Source: Nitrospinota bacterium (lineage in GTDB: Bacteria > Nitrospinota > Nitrospinia > Nitrospinales > VA-1). Taken from it: DNA of 64,000 nucleotides. Below are positions 6,871 through 52,503 of the stretch, in pieces. Position numbers and translations under genes: made by a program. The stretch lies in the NCBI GenBank assembly GCA_027619975.1, contig JAQCGX010000004.1, positions 25,508-89,507 on the forward strand, read 5' to 3'. The notes under the pieces were generated by a model. That model did not search any database. It saw only the letters and a list, made by a program, of their open reading frames with translations, and was not told the DNA's origin. The first letter of the stretch is position 1; each line of letters starts with the position of its first letter.

Positions 6871-6964
6871 CATCAATCCGTGCCCGATAAAATCCCGGCG
6901 CAGAGCCGAAAGCGGTACCCATGTCGATTTTGCTTGAATCGGTGGTAAACAAGCAACATCTTAA

Positions 6965-7185
6965 GGGCACCTCTAAAAATTATTTTATTACAGGAAATTG
7001 AACATTGTACAAGGATTTCATATATCAGTGGCACGGGCGACCTACCTTAAAGTTTATGCGGAAGTGCGGAATTTAATTCCGCCTTTCTAGCCCGTGCGGA
7101 CAGGCTGGAAAGCCTGTCCCACTAAAACAAAGCCATCTCCTTAAATTGACGATTAGGAGCATTTAGTCAATTTTTAGAGATGCCT
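6965..7185 (-). mobile_element. MITE copy A (221 bp, inverted orientation)
   Basis: Ends are GGGCACCTCTAAAAATT ... AATTTTTAGAGATGCCT. It is flanked by TTAA (6961-6964) and TTAA (7186-7189). It is about 90 percent identical to the reverse complement of copy D. Confidence 0.85.
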
Positions 7186-7231
7186 TTAAATTAAATCAGA
7201 CGTTCTCCCATCTGGCAGGAAATTAAAATTC

Positions 7232-12703: not shown

Positions 12704-12732
12704 AAATGGCGCACACAAGGAAATTATTATGA

Positions 12733-12953
12733 GGGCATCTCTAAAAATAGACTAAATGTTCCTAATCGTTAATTTAAGGAGATGGCTTTGTTTTAGTGGG
12801 ACAGGCGACCTACCCTTAAAGGTTATACGGAAGTGCGGAATTTAATTCCGCCTTTCTAGCCTGTCCGCACGGGCTAGAAAGCCCGTGCCACCGATATAAG
12901 AAATCTTGTGCAATGTTCGATTTCCCGTAATAAACTAATTTTTAGAGGTGTCC
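12733..12953 (+). mobile_element. MITE copy B (221 bp)
   Basis: GGGCATCTCTAAAAATA ... AATTTTTAGAGGTGTCC. It is flanked by ATGA (12729-12732) and ATGA (12954-12957); the right duplicate supplies the start codon of the next gene. Confidence 0.85.
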
Positions 12954-13304
12954 ATGAGTAACAAAGACAATAGCATCAATTATATTGAATTGCCGATGGT
13001 CAAAAATGCAGAGACAAAAAAATTCTACCATCATGTATTTGGATGGGAATTTACAGATTTGGGGTCCAATTATATCAGTTTTTCCGGGGCAAATATTGAT
13101 GGTGGTTTTAATGGAGAAGGTGACGCCAAGGTGTCCAGTTCCGGTGTTCTTGTGGTTCTATACGCAAAAAACCTCAATCAAAAATTAGAAGAGGTGACAA
13201 AAGCCGGTGGAGAAATCACAAAACCCATCTTTGAGTTTCCGGGCGGAAAACGATTTCATTTCCGCGACCCCAACGGGAATGAACTGGCCGTGTGGTCGGA
13301 ATAA
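12954..13304 (+). CDS. VOC (glyoxalase) family protein
   Basis: 116 aa from the ATG at 12954; the track starts at GTG 12948, inside the MITE end. INYIELPMVKNAETKKFYHHVFGWEF...FRDPNGNELAVWSE. Confidence 0.75.
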   Translation: MSNKDNSINYIELPMVKNAETKKFYHHVFGWEFTDLGSNYISFSGANIDGGFNGEGDAKVSSSGVLVVLYAKNLNQKLEEVTKAGGEITKPIFEFPGGKRFHFRDPNGNELAVWSE

Positions 13305-19077: not shown

Positions 19078-19142
19078 AGCCGTGAGTATAGCGAAGAAAT
19101 TCTAAGAGGGAATCTAAAATTTTTCATAAAAAGTTTAAAAAC

Positions 19143-19464
19143 TGTCACCCTGAGCCTGTCGAAGGGTGGTAATAGTCGTAACCTGGGTTTTAGCATTTCT
19201 TTTTTCCAAAGAATAAATGATCCCCGCCCCAAGGGGCGGGGTATTTAAAGGTAGTTTTTTTTATAACCTCCCCTAACCCCTCCTTGCAAAGGAGGGGAAT
19301 GTGAAAGGAAACCCCGTAGCAGAGCTACGAGGAATTCTTTTGATTAAAGGATGGTCACGAAAGAAAAAGGAAGCCCTGATAAAGGAAAATTTTGATTTGC
19401 TATCAAAATTATCGAAAAATAAAACTGATAGTTTAGATCCCCCTTCGACAAGCTCAGGGTGACA
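19143..19464. repeat. hairpin-rich repeat block bounded by inverted GTCACCCTGAGC...TCGAAGGG arms
   Basis: TGTCACCCTGAGCCTGTCGAAGGG (19143-19166) pairs with CCCTTCGACAAGCTCAGGGTGACA (19441-19464). Internal perfect hairpins are CCCCGCCCC-AA-GGGGCGGGG (19222-19241), CCCCTCC-TTGCAAA-GGAGGGG (19277-19297) and CGTAGC-AGA-GCTACG (19315-19329). Confidence 0.7.
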
Positions 19465-19473
19465 ATAACGAAA

Positions 19474-23422: not shown

Positions 23423-23971
23423 ATGATCGCAACAATTCTTTCCACATTAGTGATAGGTTTTTTCCTGCTGCTATTCGCCATGGTGGTGTTTCCAGCATTT
23501 TTCGGGTCCCCTTGGCACCCATTGATGCCGGGCACAATCAAGGAAATCCTTGAGTTTTCGGCCATCCAGCCGGGAGAAAAAATCTACGATCTGGGATCAG
23601 GAGACGGGAGGGTGTTGATACAGGCGGCCCGTGATTATGAGGCGGTTGGGATGGGGTTGGAAATCGACCCTTTGAAAGTCTGGGTTGCCAGAAAATTGGC
23701 CCGCATGGCGGGGGTTTCCGACCGTGTTCAATTTCTTCGTAAAAACTTCAACGATTTTGATTTCCGCGATGCGGACATCCTTTACGTTTATTTAACCCAT
23801 CAAGCGCTGGACCGCTTGTTCCCCAGAATCCTGCCTTATTTGAAACCCTCCACCCGCATCGTGTCTTACCGGTTTTGCCTGCGCAACCTGCAACCCTGCA
23901 AAATTAATAAAAAACAAAATCTTTTTATGTACCGGCTGGATAAGGGGATGAAAGTGGATGGCTATTCATAA
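23423..23971 (+). CDS. class I SAM-dependent methyltransferase with N-terminal TM helix
   Basis: 182 aa with motif I IYDLGSGDGRVLIQAA. The TAA stop lies inside the MITE-C target-site duplication. Confidence 0.7.
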   Translation: MIATILSTLVIGFFLLLFAMVVFPAFFGSPWHPLMPGTIKEILEFSAIQPGEKIYDLGSGDGRVLIQAARDYEAVGMGLEIDPLKVWVARKLARMAGVSDRVQFLRKNFNDFDFRDADILYVYLTHQALDRLFPRILPYLKPSTRIVSYRFCLRNLQPCKINKKQNLFMYRLDKGMKVDGYS

Positions 23972-24340
23972 GGGCACTTCTAAAAATTGACAACGGCACC
24001 GAATCGCCAGCTCAAAGAAGCGTCTTTTGTTTTAGTAGGACAGGCTTTCCAGCCTGTCCGCACGGGCTGGAAAGCCCGTGCCACTGATTTAAGAAACTTT
24101 TGCACACGATTCTATTTTCTGTGAAAACTAATTTTTAGCAGGTTGCTGAAAAACTATTTTTTCTACTCGCAACTGTCACACTGAGCTTGTGATATTCGAC
24201 AATTGCCTTCATGCCCCAGAGGGGTATGTCGAAGTGTGAAAACAGCCCTTATTATTAAGGTCATACTTCGACAAGCTCAGTGTGACAACAGTGGAAACCC
24301 TCGTGGATGGGACTTTTTCAGCAACCTGTTAGAGATACCC
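23972..24340 (+). mobile_element. MITE copy C (175-bp element carrying a 190-bp nested element)
   Basis: GGGCACTTCTAAAAATT ... TTAGAGATACCC, flanked by ATAA (23968-23971) and ATAA (24341-24344). Arithmetic: 369 - 190 - 4 = 175 bp, identical to copy E. Confidence 0.85.
24139..24328. mobile_element. second, unrelated MITE nested in the right TIR of copy C
   Basis: 15-bp TIR CAGGTTGCTGAAAAA ... TTTTTCAGCAACCTG, flanked by TTAG (24135-24138) and TTAG (24329-24332). Removing the element and one TTAG restores AATTTTTAGAGATACCC. There is an internal IR TGTCACACTGAGCTTGT / ACAAGCTCAGTGTGACA. Confidence 0.8.
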
Positions 24341-24438
24341 ATAAAAAAGAATTCAGAAGATGAGAGCGAGAAAAAATTTCAATATAAAATTTTACTCTTC
24401 CTTAAAAGTATTCTCGATTCTAACTTCTTCTTTCTTCT

Positions 24439-26787: not shown

Positions 26788-28278
26788 ATGACTTCCAGAA
26801 TTTTGGTCGTGGACGATAGCATAATGATCCAGAAAATCGTGGCCATGGCTTTTGAAAAGGAAGATGCAACCGTGGAAGGCATTGGTAACGGTAGCGAGGC
26901 ATTGGTAAGACTTAAAAAGTTCAAGCCGGATATTGTGTTGGCGGATGTGAATATGCCTGGACTCAACGGATTTGAACTGAGTAAAAAAATTAAAGAATCC
27001 AGCGAATTCGATTCCGTATCAGTTCTATTACTGACCAGCGACTTTGAAGATTTTGATGAGGACCTTTTTCACGACTCTCTGGCAGATGATCATATCACCA
27101 AACCTTTCAAATCTGAGGACATTGTACGCCGGGTCATGGAATTGCTGAACGGAACCGGTGGCTCAGACACCATTGAAGACGATGAAGATGTGATCACACT
27201 GGCGCCAACAGATCGGATGGAAGAGGAGTCCTTTGTGGAACTGGGGAAAAGTCATCTCGTGAGCCCTCCCGAGGAAATCTCTCTTGATCTTGATGAAGAT
27301 GAGATGCAATTGGAACTTTCAGACGAAGACATGCTGGTCACTTTGGAAAACCCGGAAAACGAAGAGCTGGTGGTGGATTTGGAAGAGGATATTGTCGACA
27401 CGGTCGATGACCCTGCCGATGTGGCTGAATCCCCTTGTGCAGACTCTCAGGAACGTGTTGAGGCCCCCTCAGTAAAACAGGTTCCGGAAGAATCCCTGGA
27501 CGAGTTGGTCCGAAGGGTCACAGAACTTTCCCGGAAATCGGAAGCTATTCGAGAGCAGAGATCCGCTGAAGAAGTGCGTCCTCTCGAAGCCCTGGATGAA
27601 ATGATAAGGGAAGTCAACGCTCTTAAAAGGGTTTCAACCGCTGTGAGCGGGGAAGGCAACGGTATTCCTAAAAACTCCGCACCTCCTGACACCACTGAGG
27701 TTAATACATTGATCGCCGAACTGAATTATTTCAGCGAAGAAAATGCTGAGGAGCTGGAGGCGGCTTTTAACGAAATTCTCCGAGGGAATAAAAATTTTGC
27801 TCCCCCTTCAACATCCGACCCGGCAGATGAAATCGCCGCCGCCGATGAGGGCAATGAGGATGAGAATAACGAAACCGTTTTTGAACCCGATACGGTTCAT
27901 GAAGACCTGATAATTTCCCCAGTGAAGATCTCACCCGCTAACTCCGTGGAGACTCAAGAGATCGAGACACTTCCTGAAACTTCAGAGGAGGTTGATGCGT
28001 CTCTGGAAGAAAACAATGTAGAGGTCGAGGAGGAAATTTTTGCAGATATCAGCGCCTTCCAGAGTTCTCAGGAGGATCTATACGCCCGGTTGATGGGAGA
28101 AGAATTCAGAGAAGTTCTCGAGCAGTCACTGGCCGCTTCCATGGAAAAGGAAATCTCCGGAATTTCTGAGAAGATCATTACATCTGTAGAAGAAGCCATC
28201 AAAGCAATTGTTCCTGGTTTGGTGCAAGAGATGATTGCCAAGGAAATAGAACAACATAAAAACGAGAATAATAGCTAA
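26788..28278 (+). CDS. response regulator receiver protein with long acidic C-terminal extension
   Basis: 496 aa. CheY-like receiver (ILVVDDSIMI...IVLADVNMPGLNG...HITKPF) followed by ~370 aa very rich in D/E with no recognisable output domain. The TAA stop lies inside the MITE-D TSD. Confidence 0.8.
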   Translation: MTSRILVVDDSIMIQKIVAMAFEKEDATVEGIGNGSEALVRLKKFKPDIVLADVNMPGLNGFELSKKIKESSEFDSVSVLLLTSDFEDFDEDLFHDSLADDHITKPFKSEDIVRRVMELLNGTGGSDTIEDDEDVITLAPTDRMEEESFVELGKSHLVSPPEEISLDLDEDEMQLELSDEDMLVTLENPENEELVVDLEEDIVDTVDDPADVAESPCADSQERVEAPSVKQVPEESLDELVRRVTELSRKSEAIREQRSAEEVRPLEALDEMIREVNALKRVSTAVSGEGNGIPKNSAPPDTTEVNTLIAELNYFSEENAEELEAAFNEILRGNKNFAPPSTSDPADEIAAADEGNEDENNETVFEPDTVHEDLIISPVKISPANSVETQEIETLPETSEEVDASLEENNVEVEEEIFADISAFQSSQEDLYARLMGEEFREVLEQSLAASMEKEISGISEKIITSVEEAIKAIVPGLVQEMIAKEIEQHKNENNS

Positions 28279-28279
28279 A

Positions 28280-28500
28280 GGGTATCTCTAAAAATTGACT
28301 AAATGCTCCTAATCGTCAACTTAAGGAGATGGCTTTGTTTTAGTGGAACAGGCTTTCCAGCCTGTTCGCACGGGCTAGAAAGGCGGAATTAAATTCCGCA
28401 CTTCCGCATAAACTTTAAGGTAGGTCGCCCGTGCCACCAATATAAGAAATCCTTGTACAGTGTTCGATTTCCTGTAATAAACTAATTTTTAGAGATGCCC
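28280..28500 (+). mobile_element. MITE copy D (221 bp)
   Basis: GGGTATCTCTAAAAATT ... AATTTTTAGAGATGCCC, flanked by TAAA (28276-28279) and TAAA (28501-28504). Confidence 0.88.
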
Positions 28501-28739
28501 TAAAGAATAACTCAAGCCGGATTTTGCTTTTTCTAAAGTGACAACTCCCTTCATAAGCATAGAAAAATTAAAACGCGGGTAGGGTTCCCTTTCCCGATCG
28601 TTTTTAATCAACCCTATTTAGTTAATGATGCCTGGAGAATAGTTTAGGTGAGGCGGGAAACTGCCCGGAGGTTCTGAGCCTTCTGTTCGCAAATACTGGT
28701 TTCGCCCTTTTACATTATTACAATTGACGCAATTTGATT

Positions 28740-51695: not shown

Positions 51696-52227
51696 TAGGA
51701 AAAATTTTTCAAATTCCCTTTCTCCGCCCTCTAATCTTGTTTGTTCTTTTTCCGTAAAGCCCCCACCAGCAATAGGCGCTATAAAAATCGAGCTGGATTT
51801 CAGATGTAAAATTGTGACCCCGGTCACTAGATTGTGTGACTCCTATCCTACCCCCACTTTCCATAACGCTATACGCTTATAACTGAGGTTAAATGCATTT
51901 CTAAATACCGGAAGTTCCTGAATTGAGGCTCGATATGGATTTTCCTTTTGGCATTCCATTAGTAAGAACTCAAAAGATCCCCCCGAAGCCCTGCCTTAAA
52001 GTATCCTTCCTGGCTGGTATCGGTGCATCTTACACAAGACAATTAAATCATTCACCAGCCCATCAAAAATCTCAGGAAGATCTTTTAGCAATAGGGAAGT
52101 AAACAAGGTCCGTTTGGCAAAGTTCGCCTCCTTTTCTTTGTCTCCGACCCTATGGCCGGGCACCCCCCAATTCCCTTCCAAAGGGTCGGAGGCGGACCTT
52201 TCCATTATCAAACCCGGACACCATTAA

Positions 52228-52402
52228 GGGCATCTCTAAAAATTGACAACGACGCCGAATCGCCAATTCAAAGAAGCGTCTTTTGTTTTAGTAGGACAGG
52301 CGACCTACCCTTAAATTTAAGGATAGGTCGCCCGTGCCACTGATTTAAGAAACTTTTGCACACGATTCTATTTTCTGTGAAAACTAATTTTTAGAGATGC
52401 CC
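52228..52402 (+). mobile_element. MITE copy E (175 bp, perfect 17-bp TIR)
   Basis: GGGCATCTCTAAAAATT ... AATTTTTAGAGATGCCC, flanked by TTAA (52224-52227) and TTAA (52403-52406). Confidence 0.88.
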
Positions 52403-52503
52403 TTAAATCTAAAATTTCAACTGGCAGGGTTTTGTTCGGATTTTCTTGAATCCTTTAGGAGGCTAAGAATATCTTATAGAAAGGTAGCATTGCTAATCCC
52501 TCT

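Follow-up and report, generated by a model that had tools for sequence, protein, structure and literature searches.

A cassette at mirrored positions of a REP-like hairpin pair inside a MITE from an uncultured Nitrospinota lineage

The insertion specificity of IS200/IS605 elements, and of insertion sequences that target repetitive extragenic palindromes (REPs) such as IS1397, is set by DNA hairpins. Terminal repeats and target duplications are lacking in IS200/IS605 elements, whose insertion point lies 3' of a short motif. The bacterial interspersed mosaic elements (BIMEs) of E. coli are modular mosaics of REPs, or palindromic units (PUs), and extra-PU motifs, in which modules are tandemly iterated, and the enterobacterial repetitive intergenic consensus (ERIC) and Correia elements occur in internal insertion and deletion forms. 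Here we describe a MITE (miniature inverted-repeat transposable element) that carries a pair of REP-like hairpins, either of which may be split by a 45-46-nt cassette, in a 64,000-nt stretch (hereafter the window) of the genome of a Nitrospinota bacterium (GenBank assembly GCA_027619975.1, contig JAQCGX010000004.1, positions 25,508 to 89,507 of the forward strand). We conclude that the core hairpins are a head-to-head pair of REP-like palindromes that forms a quasi-palindrome similar to a REPIN (REP doublet forming a hairpin). The cassette is probably (we put the probability at roughly 0.55) a lineage-specific extension of one arm of this quasi-palindrome, which was copied and lost across the symmetry and spread as variant copies transposed.

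GTAG-tagged REPs are short palindromes with an unpaired terminal GTAG (GTGG in one family, GTAG-20 of O. terrae), and they are often paired head to head, the tags then facing outward (Di Nocera et al. 2013, PMC3733652). Within some REP families, short loops are found beside long loops with GCGG/CCGC termini and a self-complementary interior; dimers with unequal-loop partners and clustered REP arrays are known, as are dimers nested in longer palindromes in Anabaena variabilis (PMC3733652). Long palindromes are subject to SbcCD-type processing, and unequal-partner dimers have been proposed to escape it (PMC3733652). Template switching between the arms of imperfect inverted repeats is known to homogenize, extend or correct those arms (PMC7202029, PMC8794818, PMC8604942), and a MITE of Porphyromonas gingivalis is reported to have a minisatellite inside (PMC4596501).

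We refer to the MITE copies of the window as A to E and to the 45-46-nt segment of copies A, B and D as the type-1 cassette. A sequence-only reading of the window had assigned this cassette to hairpin 2 in copies A and D and, as its reverse complement, to the equivalent place in hairpin 1 of copy B, and its coordinates and sequences are correct. Its list of copies A to D was also right, although it overlooked a fifth copy, E (52228-52402). The cassettes, and the core of copy B, are located as follows:

7039..7083, minus strand: type-1 cassette in copy A, 45 nt, in hairpin 2 of the inverted element; same sequence as the cassette of copy D.
12796..12891, plus strand: core of copy B, a head-to-head REP-like dimer comprising the GTGG tag, the cassette-bearing hairpin 1 and hairpin 2 (GCACGGGC TAGAAA GCCCGTGC, 12867-12888), then CAC.
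12807..12852, minus strand: type-1 cassette in copy B, 46 nt, reverse-complemented, between the 5' stem strand of hairpin 1 (12800-12806) and its loop plus 3' stem strand (12853-12866).
28382..28426, plus strand: type-1 cassette in copy D, 45 nt, between the loop of hairpin 2 (TAGAAA, 28376-28381) and its 3' stem strand (28427-28434).

Copy C has the short form attributed to it, with two bare tandem hairpins (24039-24082), GACAGGC TTTCCAG CCTGTCC and GCACGGGC TGGAAA GCCCGTGC, and no cassette. In copy D, hairpin 1 is intact and is followed by GCACGGGC TAGAAA, the cassette and GCCCGTGC. Copy B reads GACAGGC (12800-12806), the reverse-complemented cassette, TTTCTAG, CCTGTCC (12860-12866) and an intact hairpin 2 (12867-12888). 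The cassette of B differs from that of A and D at 3 positions. A 39-nt cassette pattern has 3 matches in the window (0 expected; 100 shuffles) and the 17-nt cassette palindrome has 3 (0.11 expected); all of the window cassettes (3/3) are inside the MITE.

The two hairpins are inverted relative to each other and bear unpaired tags on their outer sides, the arrangement of a head-to-head dimer, in line with the proposal that they are near inverted copies. Among approximately 21 copies compared, the tag directly 5' of hairpin 1 is GTAG (arm subfamily 2) or GTGG (subfamilies 1 and 3), and CCAC (GTGG on the other strand) lies directly 3' of hairpin 2 in nearly all. Folded as single-stranded DNA (ssDNA), the core without the cassette reaches -22.6 kcal/mol (z = -8.4), with stems of 9 bp and loops of 4 nt. 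The core is also the best-conserved part of the MITE interior (91-98% identity across subfamilies and genomes, vs. 61-65% for the arms). A compensatory change of a G-C to an A-T pair in hairpin 1 (window 28347-28367; GGACAGGC/GCCTGTCC to GAACAGGC/GCCTGTTC) is common to copy D and locus L059 despite their different arm subfamilies, which suggests either exchange of cores between subfamilies or recurrent symmetric correction.

All occurrences of hairpins 1 and 2 in the window lie within MITE copies, and they do not form a free-standing high-copy family in this 64-kb sample. Free-standing REP-like units with the same loop and another stem (GTAGTG GCGCGGAC TTTCCA GTCCGCGC) were identified outside any MITE only in contigs of metagenome Ga0114931, at L043:7806-7845 and L067:7333-7354, the latter paired with an ACAGGC-stem hairpin that bears an array of the second cassette described below. 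A scan of the genome collection with a 20-nt left-junction pattern recovered inverted doublets, GTAGGACAGGCTTCAGCCTGTC ... GACAGGCTGAAGCCTGTCCTAC (GTAGGACAGGC-type), in metagenome-assembled genomes (MAGs) of Acidobacteriota, Verrucomicrobiota and Methylomirabilota (L001-L009, L040-L066). These are classical inverted REP doublets. Thus, nearly the same tagged stem serves REP-like repeats of distant phyla. The signature of a REP-associated tyrosine transposase (RAYT), Y..NP, or a WEH motif was not found in six-frame translations of the limited sequence examined (~82 kb of the strain, and related loci).

The junction at which the cassette enters is always CT[AG]GAAA^GCCYGT (the caret marks the insertion point), with 1 nt of ambiguity, and the cassette has neither terminal repeats nor a target duplication. 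It opens with an inner palindrome, GCGG...CCGC, exactly of the kind described for the long loops of REP families, and includes a short internal duplication (TTCCGC AC TTCCGC). Its hairpin (GCGGAATT/AATTCCGC) is at the loop-proximal end only, the opposite end (...CTTTAAGGTAGGTC) being without one, and it is always present as a single copy. In ssDNA folds, both REP stems are still able to pair around the cassette (z = -7.0 for B, including the internal GCGGAATT/AATTCCGC hairpin, and z = -5.6 for D). The insertion point had been read as the loop-stem junction. The site is indeed recurrent, but a 9-bp stem with a 4-nt loop puts GAAA^GCCYGT 1-2 bp inside the 3' stem strand and not exactly at the loop-stem boundary. 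We searched for free-standing or otherwise-hosted cassettes, a check suggested by the sequence-only reading, and found none in ~82 kb of the strain (the window and its flanks). There was no match to the cassette in related loci or viral contigs, Rfam gave no hit, and a plasmid BLAST with the whole of MITE copy D, a query not specific to the cassette, was likewise without a match. An origin of the cassette in the MITE's own arms was rejected, as local comparison gave no significant similarity to the rest of the element.

Contigs of metagenome Ga0114931 carry the same MITE family with a different insert, the type-2 cassette, whose units are 36-39 nt long. Read along the strand of hairpin 2, its sequence is GCCTGTATTGCTAC..AT-rich..GCAAT, and it occupies the same junction, GAAA^GCCYGT. 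Thus, the junction is a recurrent site. Type-2 units are arranged head to tail, each starting with GCCTGT and each containing GTAG and a mini-hairpin, GCAAT-ACAGGC-ATTGC. The cores with and without these units form a series parallel to that of the window:

No cassette: L058, L059 and L064.
Hairpin 1 only: L041 and L067 (element from about 10734).
Hairpin 2, one unit: L046.
Hairpin 2, two units: L042 and L065.
Hairpin 2, at least three units: L057.
Both arms: L050.
Center-deleted: L051 and L043.

An array of type-2 units free of MITE arms is present at L067:7330-7480. Within the MITE copies, units in hairpin 2 start with GCCTGT, the hairpin-1-type stem, and not with the GCCCGT of hairpin 2, which points to templated copying rather than to an insertion that duplicates its target. 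In the copies seen so far the unit variants are specific to the arm: variant d was confined to hairpin 1, and a, b and c occurred intact in hairpin 2 alone. Homology between the two cassette types was considered and rejected. Only AAC(T)TTTAAGGTAG is common to both, in opposite orientation, and its score (reached in 4/1000 shuffles, but over 16 comparisons) is marginal. The match is between window 28411-28424 and the reverse complement of type-2 unit c (L051/L057), agrees at 13/14 positions and has the opposite orientation relative to the host hairpin.

Copy E provides a further form of the type-1 series. Its core consists of GACAGGC, GACCTACCCTTAAA/TTTAAGGATAGGTC and GCCCGTGC, and it is without the 3' stem strand of hairpin 1, the 5' stem strand of hairpin 2 and both loops:

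52302..52329, strand not assigned: center-deleted core of copy E, with the outer 14 nt of the left (B-type) cassette and the outer 14 nt of the right cassette, which together make up a 28-nt palindrome flanked by GACAGGC and GCCCGTGC.

E, which retains only the outer 14 nt of two inverted cassettes, requires a two-armed precursor. The center-deleted type-2 forms L051 and L043 are parallel to E, and with L050, which is two-armed, they indicate that cassettes reach both arms and are then lost. From the range of forms seen, the losses are partly one-sided and partly symmetric central deletions. A two-armed model of the type-1 core folds into an almost perfect hairpin of ~70 bp (-72 kcal/mol, z = -18.8).

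The mirrored placement of the cassette follows from the symmetry of its host. With REPs that mirror each other, a given segment necessarily lies at mirrored positions, and in opposite orientations, on the two partners. Symmetry, copying between arms and differential loss would therefore explain the placement, and independent targeted insertions, by which the sequence-only reading had accounted for it, are not required. We predict that the cassette was gained once at the junction in the window lineage. The other arm would then have received a copy of it, either through intramolecular template switching that spans the quasi-palindrome or through exchange among copies. The long and almost perfect palindrome formed in this way would be unstable and would either lose the cassette of one arm, giving the A/D or the B form, or undergo a symmetric central deletion, giving E, after which the variant copies may have transposed to new sites. 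Both this copying and loss, and the direction that we give to it, are what we infer from the forms observed.

All three arm subfamilies, two metagenome sources and MAG OFTM99 have 46-nt cores free of a cassette, and each cassette type is confined to one lineage. Thus, the cassettes were gained secondarily, and deletion alone does not account for the 175-bp form. The alternative in which the 221-bp form is ancestral and the 175-bp form arose by simple deletion is not supported by this distribution. Since type-1 sequence occurs in A/B/D as well as in E, and thus in both of the window's arm subfamilies, either cores were exchanged between copies or the cassette moved between them. Given that the insertions are fixed and are absent from a 98% relative (see below), the variant cores most likely arose in source copies, which then transposed.

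Inversion does not account for copy B. A whole-core inversion of the A/D form was rejected, since B keeps the order of hairpin 1 then hairpin 2, with the hairpin-1-type stem still by the left arm and the hairpin-2-type stem by the right. Read on the plus strand, A is 88% alike to B over 78 nt, the differences being mostly the swapped stems. An inversion of the inner segment alone was also rejected, because it predicts mismatched stems that are not seen.

Several observations weigh against copying and loss across the quasi-palindrome. Only five copies are available from the window genome, and the two-armed type-1 form was not seen directly. Two unrelated cassettes at exactly one junction suggest a site-specific process, which the symmetry model does not explain, and every type-2 unit, as well as the type-1 cassette, contains GTAG, the cleavage motif of RAYT enzymes (PMC3733652). 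The microhomology flanking the type-1 cassette amounts to 1 nt, and precise loss by simple slippage is not obviously favored. The five copies are each identical across 8-20 assemblies of the window strain, with no polymorphism of their cores in place, so interconversion within the population was not caught in progress. Finally, the loop of hairpin 1 in copy B (TTTCTAG) is that of hairpin 2, which we considered as proof of co-conversion, but the same loop is found in cassette-free L059 and in L067b, and it is a weak clue.

The principal alternative is the one favored by the sequence-only reading, a site- and structure-specific insertion of the IS200/IS605 or REP/RAYT kind. The cassette would be a tiny non-autonomous module, inserted repeatedly at the stem-loop junction of REP-like hairpins by an enzyme of the RAYT or IS200/IS605 TnpA type that acts on single strands and recognizes structure, with each hairpin targeted independently. 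We regard this as unlikely, although part of the proposal stands. The host hairpins bear GTAG/GTGG tags and are the kind of hairpin on which RAYT enzymes act, and the junction GAAA^GCCYGT is used in both hairpins, by two cassettes in two lineages. The type-1 cassette, with its loop-proximal hairpin and without terminal repeats or target duplication, is also compatible with such an enzyme, as are its presence in two arm subfamilies of only 61-65% identity and the GTAG in each cassette unit, at which RAYT cuts REP ssDNA (PMC3733652). The rest of the proposal finds no support in the searches described above: no type-1 cassette outside the MITE in ~82 kb of the strain or in viral contigs, no plasmid match to copy D as a whole (not cassette-specific), and no Y1/RAYT signature (Y..NP) in six-frame translations of the limited sequence examined. 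In addition, the cassette has a hairpin at one end and not at both, the hairpin-1-type stem on type-2 units in hairpin 2 would not have been brought by insertion, the unit variants are specific to the arm, and the center-deleted forms need two-armed precursors.

A more elaborate version, in which the cassettes are a third nesting layer, is doubtful. Here a RAYT-like single-strand nuclease would move tiny noncoding modules into the stem-loop junction of REP hairpins, themselves in a REPIN-like dimer on a DDE-type MITE. If true, the nested cassettes would be a hyperparasite of a parasite, and Nitrospinota lineages would have taken different cassettes at one enzyme-defined site.

It is also improbable that the forms are a pure deletion series, in which a two-armed core (element of about 266 bp) was ancestral and the 221-bp form, the 175-bp form and E all arose by deletion only. 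E, L051 and L043 are indeed best read as central deletions of two-armed forms, L050 is two-armed, the variants are specific to the arm, and the modeled two-armed type-1 core, as a very stable palindrome, is predicted to be unstable in vivo. However, the 46-nt cassette-free cores of three arm subfamilies, two metagenome sources and MAG OFTM99 are not accounted for, and exact loss of the cassette, with only 1 nt of microhomology to guide it, would need to have happened over and over. Because the cassette types are lineage-confined and their homology is not demonstrable, at least two gains at the junction are needed in any case. Local tandem duplication, or minisatellite-like slippage, that creates and expands the extra segment at the hairpin is very improbable, since it fits the 1-3 head-to-tail type-2 repeats of 36-39 nt (GCCTGT start, mini-hairpin GCAAT-ACAGGC-ATTGC) and the TTCCGC AC TTCCGC duplication, but not a type-1 cassette that is never more than a single copy and has no significant likeness to the rest of the MITE, and it leaves the mirrored placement unexplained.

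The host element is a recently active MITE in an uncultured Nitrospinota lineage. It is 175-221 bp long, with 5 copies in 64 kb and no open reading frame of more than 29 aa within the element. Terminal inverted repeats (TIRs; GGGCATCTCTAAAAATT / AATTTTTAGAGATGCCC) bound A, B, D and E on each side, and they bound C as well when a nested insert is left out of account. The copies, and the insert, are:

6965..7185, minus strand: MITE copy A, 221 bp, inverted; target duplication TTAA (6961-6964, 7186-7189); empty site in L078.
12733..12953, plus strand: MITE copy B, 221 bp; TIR GGGCATCTCTAAAAAT.../...TTTTTAGAGGTGTCC; target duplication ATGA (12729-12732, 12954-12957); empty site TTGCTCAT/AATAATTT in L078.
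23972..24340, plus strand: MITE copy C, 175 bp without the nested 190-bp MITE and its duplicated TTAG; target duplication ATAA (23968-23971, 24341-24344); core 24039-24084 cassette-free.
24139..24328, strand not assigned: second, unrelated MITE, 190 bp, nested in the right TIR of C; TIR CAGGTTGCTGAAAAAC / GTTTTTCAGCAACCTG; target duplication TTAG.
28280..28500, plus strand: MITE copy D, 221 bp; target duplication TAAA (28276-28279, 28501-28504); empty site AATAGCTAAAGAATAAC in L074.
52228..52402, plus strand: MITE copy E, 175 bp; target duplication TTAA (52224-52227, 52403-52406); identical in 8 assemblies.

Clean single-copy empty sites for A, B and D were identified in a relative with a 98% identical ValS (L074/L078). 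Copy C is also absent from this relative (L074), where the intergenic gap is 42 bp and the sequence downstream of the site has diverged. Together, the TIRs, target duplications and empty sites establish a genuine, recently active MITE. The relative (L074/L075, L078/L082) has no MITE copy in ~35 kb, vs. 5 copies in ~82 kb of the window strain, which argues for a very recent lineage-specific burst. The window strain is also represented in many metagenome assemblies and in GCA_027624285.1.

Two arm subfamilies are present in the window (A, B and D vs. C and E), with 61-65% identity between them, and a third occurs in the Ga0114931 contigs. The family is also found in a MAG titled Alphaproteobacteria bacterium OFTM99. 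The genome-collection scan otherwise gave mostly chance or REP matches, the number of MAGs with the MITE being 1. A search of the window and of ~100 kb of related loci for a parent insertion sequence that shares the TIRs of the MITE turned up no such element, just MITE copies and a single solo TIR (GGGCATCTCTAAAAATCGAC) at L049:5290-5312, after which the sequence is unrelated. Strongly truncated copies were found at L049:3131-3207 and in L044. Judging by these truncated copies and the solo repeat, internal deletions are frequent in the family.

Other features of the copies are of local interest. Copy B sits exactly on the start codon of a glyoxalase-family gene (window 12729-12957), the ATG being part of the target duplication ATGA. 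Its right end is GAGGTGTCC where the consensus is GAGATGCCC, so that a Shine-Dalgarno-like GAGG stands 6 nt upstream of the ATG and takes over from the native ribosome-binding site, which was displaced. The junction of the nested 190-bp MITE with copy C recurs in metagenome locus L044. The interior of the nested MITE has GTCACACTGAGCTTGT...CGAAG palindromes, which are found too at window 19140-19170 and 19445-19470. Many metagenome assemblies break at MITE copies. Assignment of the element to the cyanobacterial Nezha MITE or to a small dispersed repeat was rejected, the ValS homologues being named Nitrospinae/Nitrospinaceae. Proteins under the name 'MAG: Nitrospinae bacterium' match the window's ValS at 100% identity, and its other homologues bear the names Nitrospinaceae or Nitrospina.

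REP-type hairpins are normally linked to RAYT. Here they appear to spread as the cargo of a MITE, which would be a route for REP multiplication without a transposase of their own. The two parallel series on two cassettes, in which the core has no extension, an extension on its left, its right or each of its arms, or a deleted center, form an unusually clear record of how an arm is gained, mirrored and shed, and they bear on the origin of REP loop variants and unequal-partner dimers. In practical terms, metagenome assemblies are interrupted by the MITE, which is a marker of very recent divergence among strains of Nitrospinota.

The core resembles GTAG-tagged REPs and REPINs (PMC3733652; Bertels & Rainey 2011, PMC3116915) in its GC-rich palindromes, 9-bp stems and outer unpaired tag, and it resembles REP dimers and REPINs in that its inverted units are 0-1 bp apart and can fold as two hairpins or as one long hairpin. 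Unlike REPs and REPINs, the dimer described here is seen in the window genome only inside a MITE with TIRs and a target duplication, and thus it spreads by a different, presumably DDE-type, transposition system; a RAYT gene was not found in the limited sequence examined here. The cassette also puts ~50 nt between the paired stems, whereas described REP loops are 2-20 nt, or up to 27 nt, and the extension is asymmetric, on the tag-proximal side.

With BIMEs and clustered REP arrays the cassette system has in common a modular build and tandem iteration, as in the type-2 arrays of 1-3 units, each with GTAG. It differs from BIMEs in that the extra modules are inside the REP hairpin and not between REPs, and in that the whole mosaic is carried by a MITE. 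IS200/IS605 elements and IS1397 are more distant, as the cassette is a 45-nt noncoding segment with a hairpin at one end only and with no known free copy or cognate transposase. The MITEs with length variants (the P. gingivalis MITE, ERIC and Correia elements) likewise come in separate long and short versions set apart by an internal block, but in the Nitrospinota MITE the block is at mirrored positions of a REP dimer, and different lineages have different blocks at the same junction. Template switching at quasi-palindromes (PMC7202029, PMC8794818, PMC8604942) predicts mirror-image copying or removal from arm to arm, as in the cassette series; documented events are mostly of a few nucleotides, whereas the cassette tract that would have been copied or removed is 45 nt. 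The present evidence does not reveal a new transposition mechanism. Rather, a REP-dimer core inside a MITE, with an arm extension that is mirrored and shed, is a variant of the known REP/REPIN/BIME-type mosaics and MITEs.

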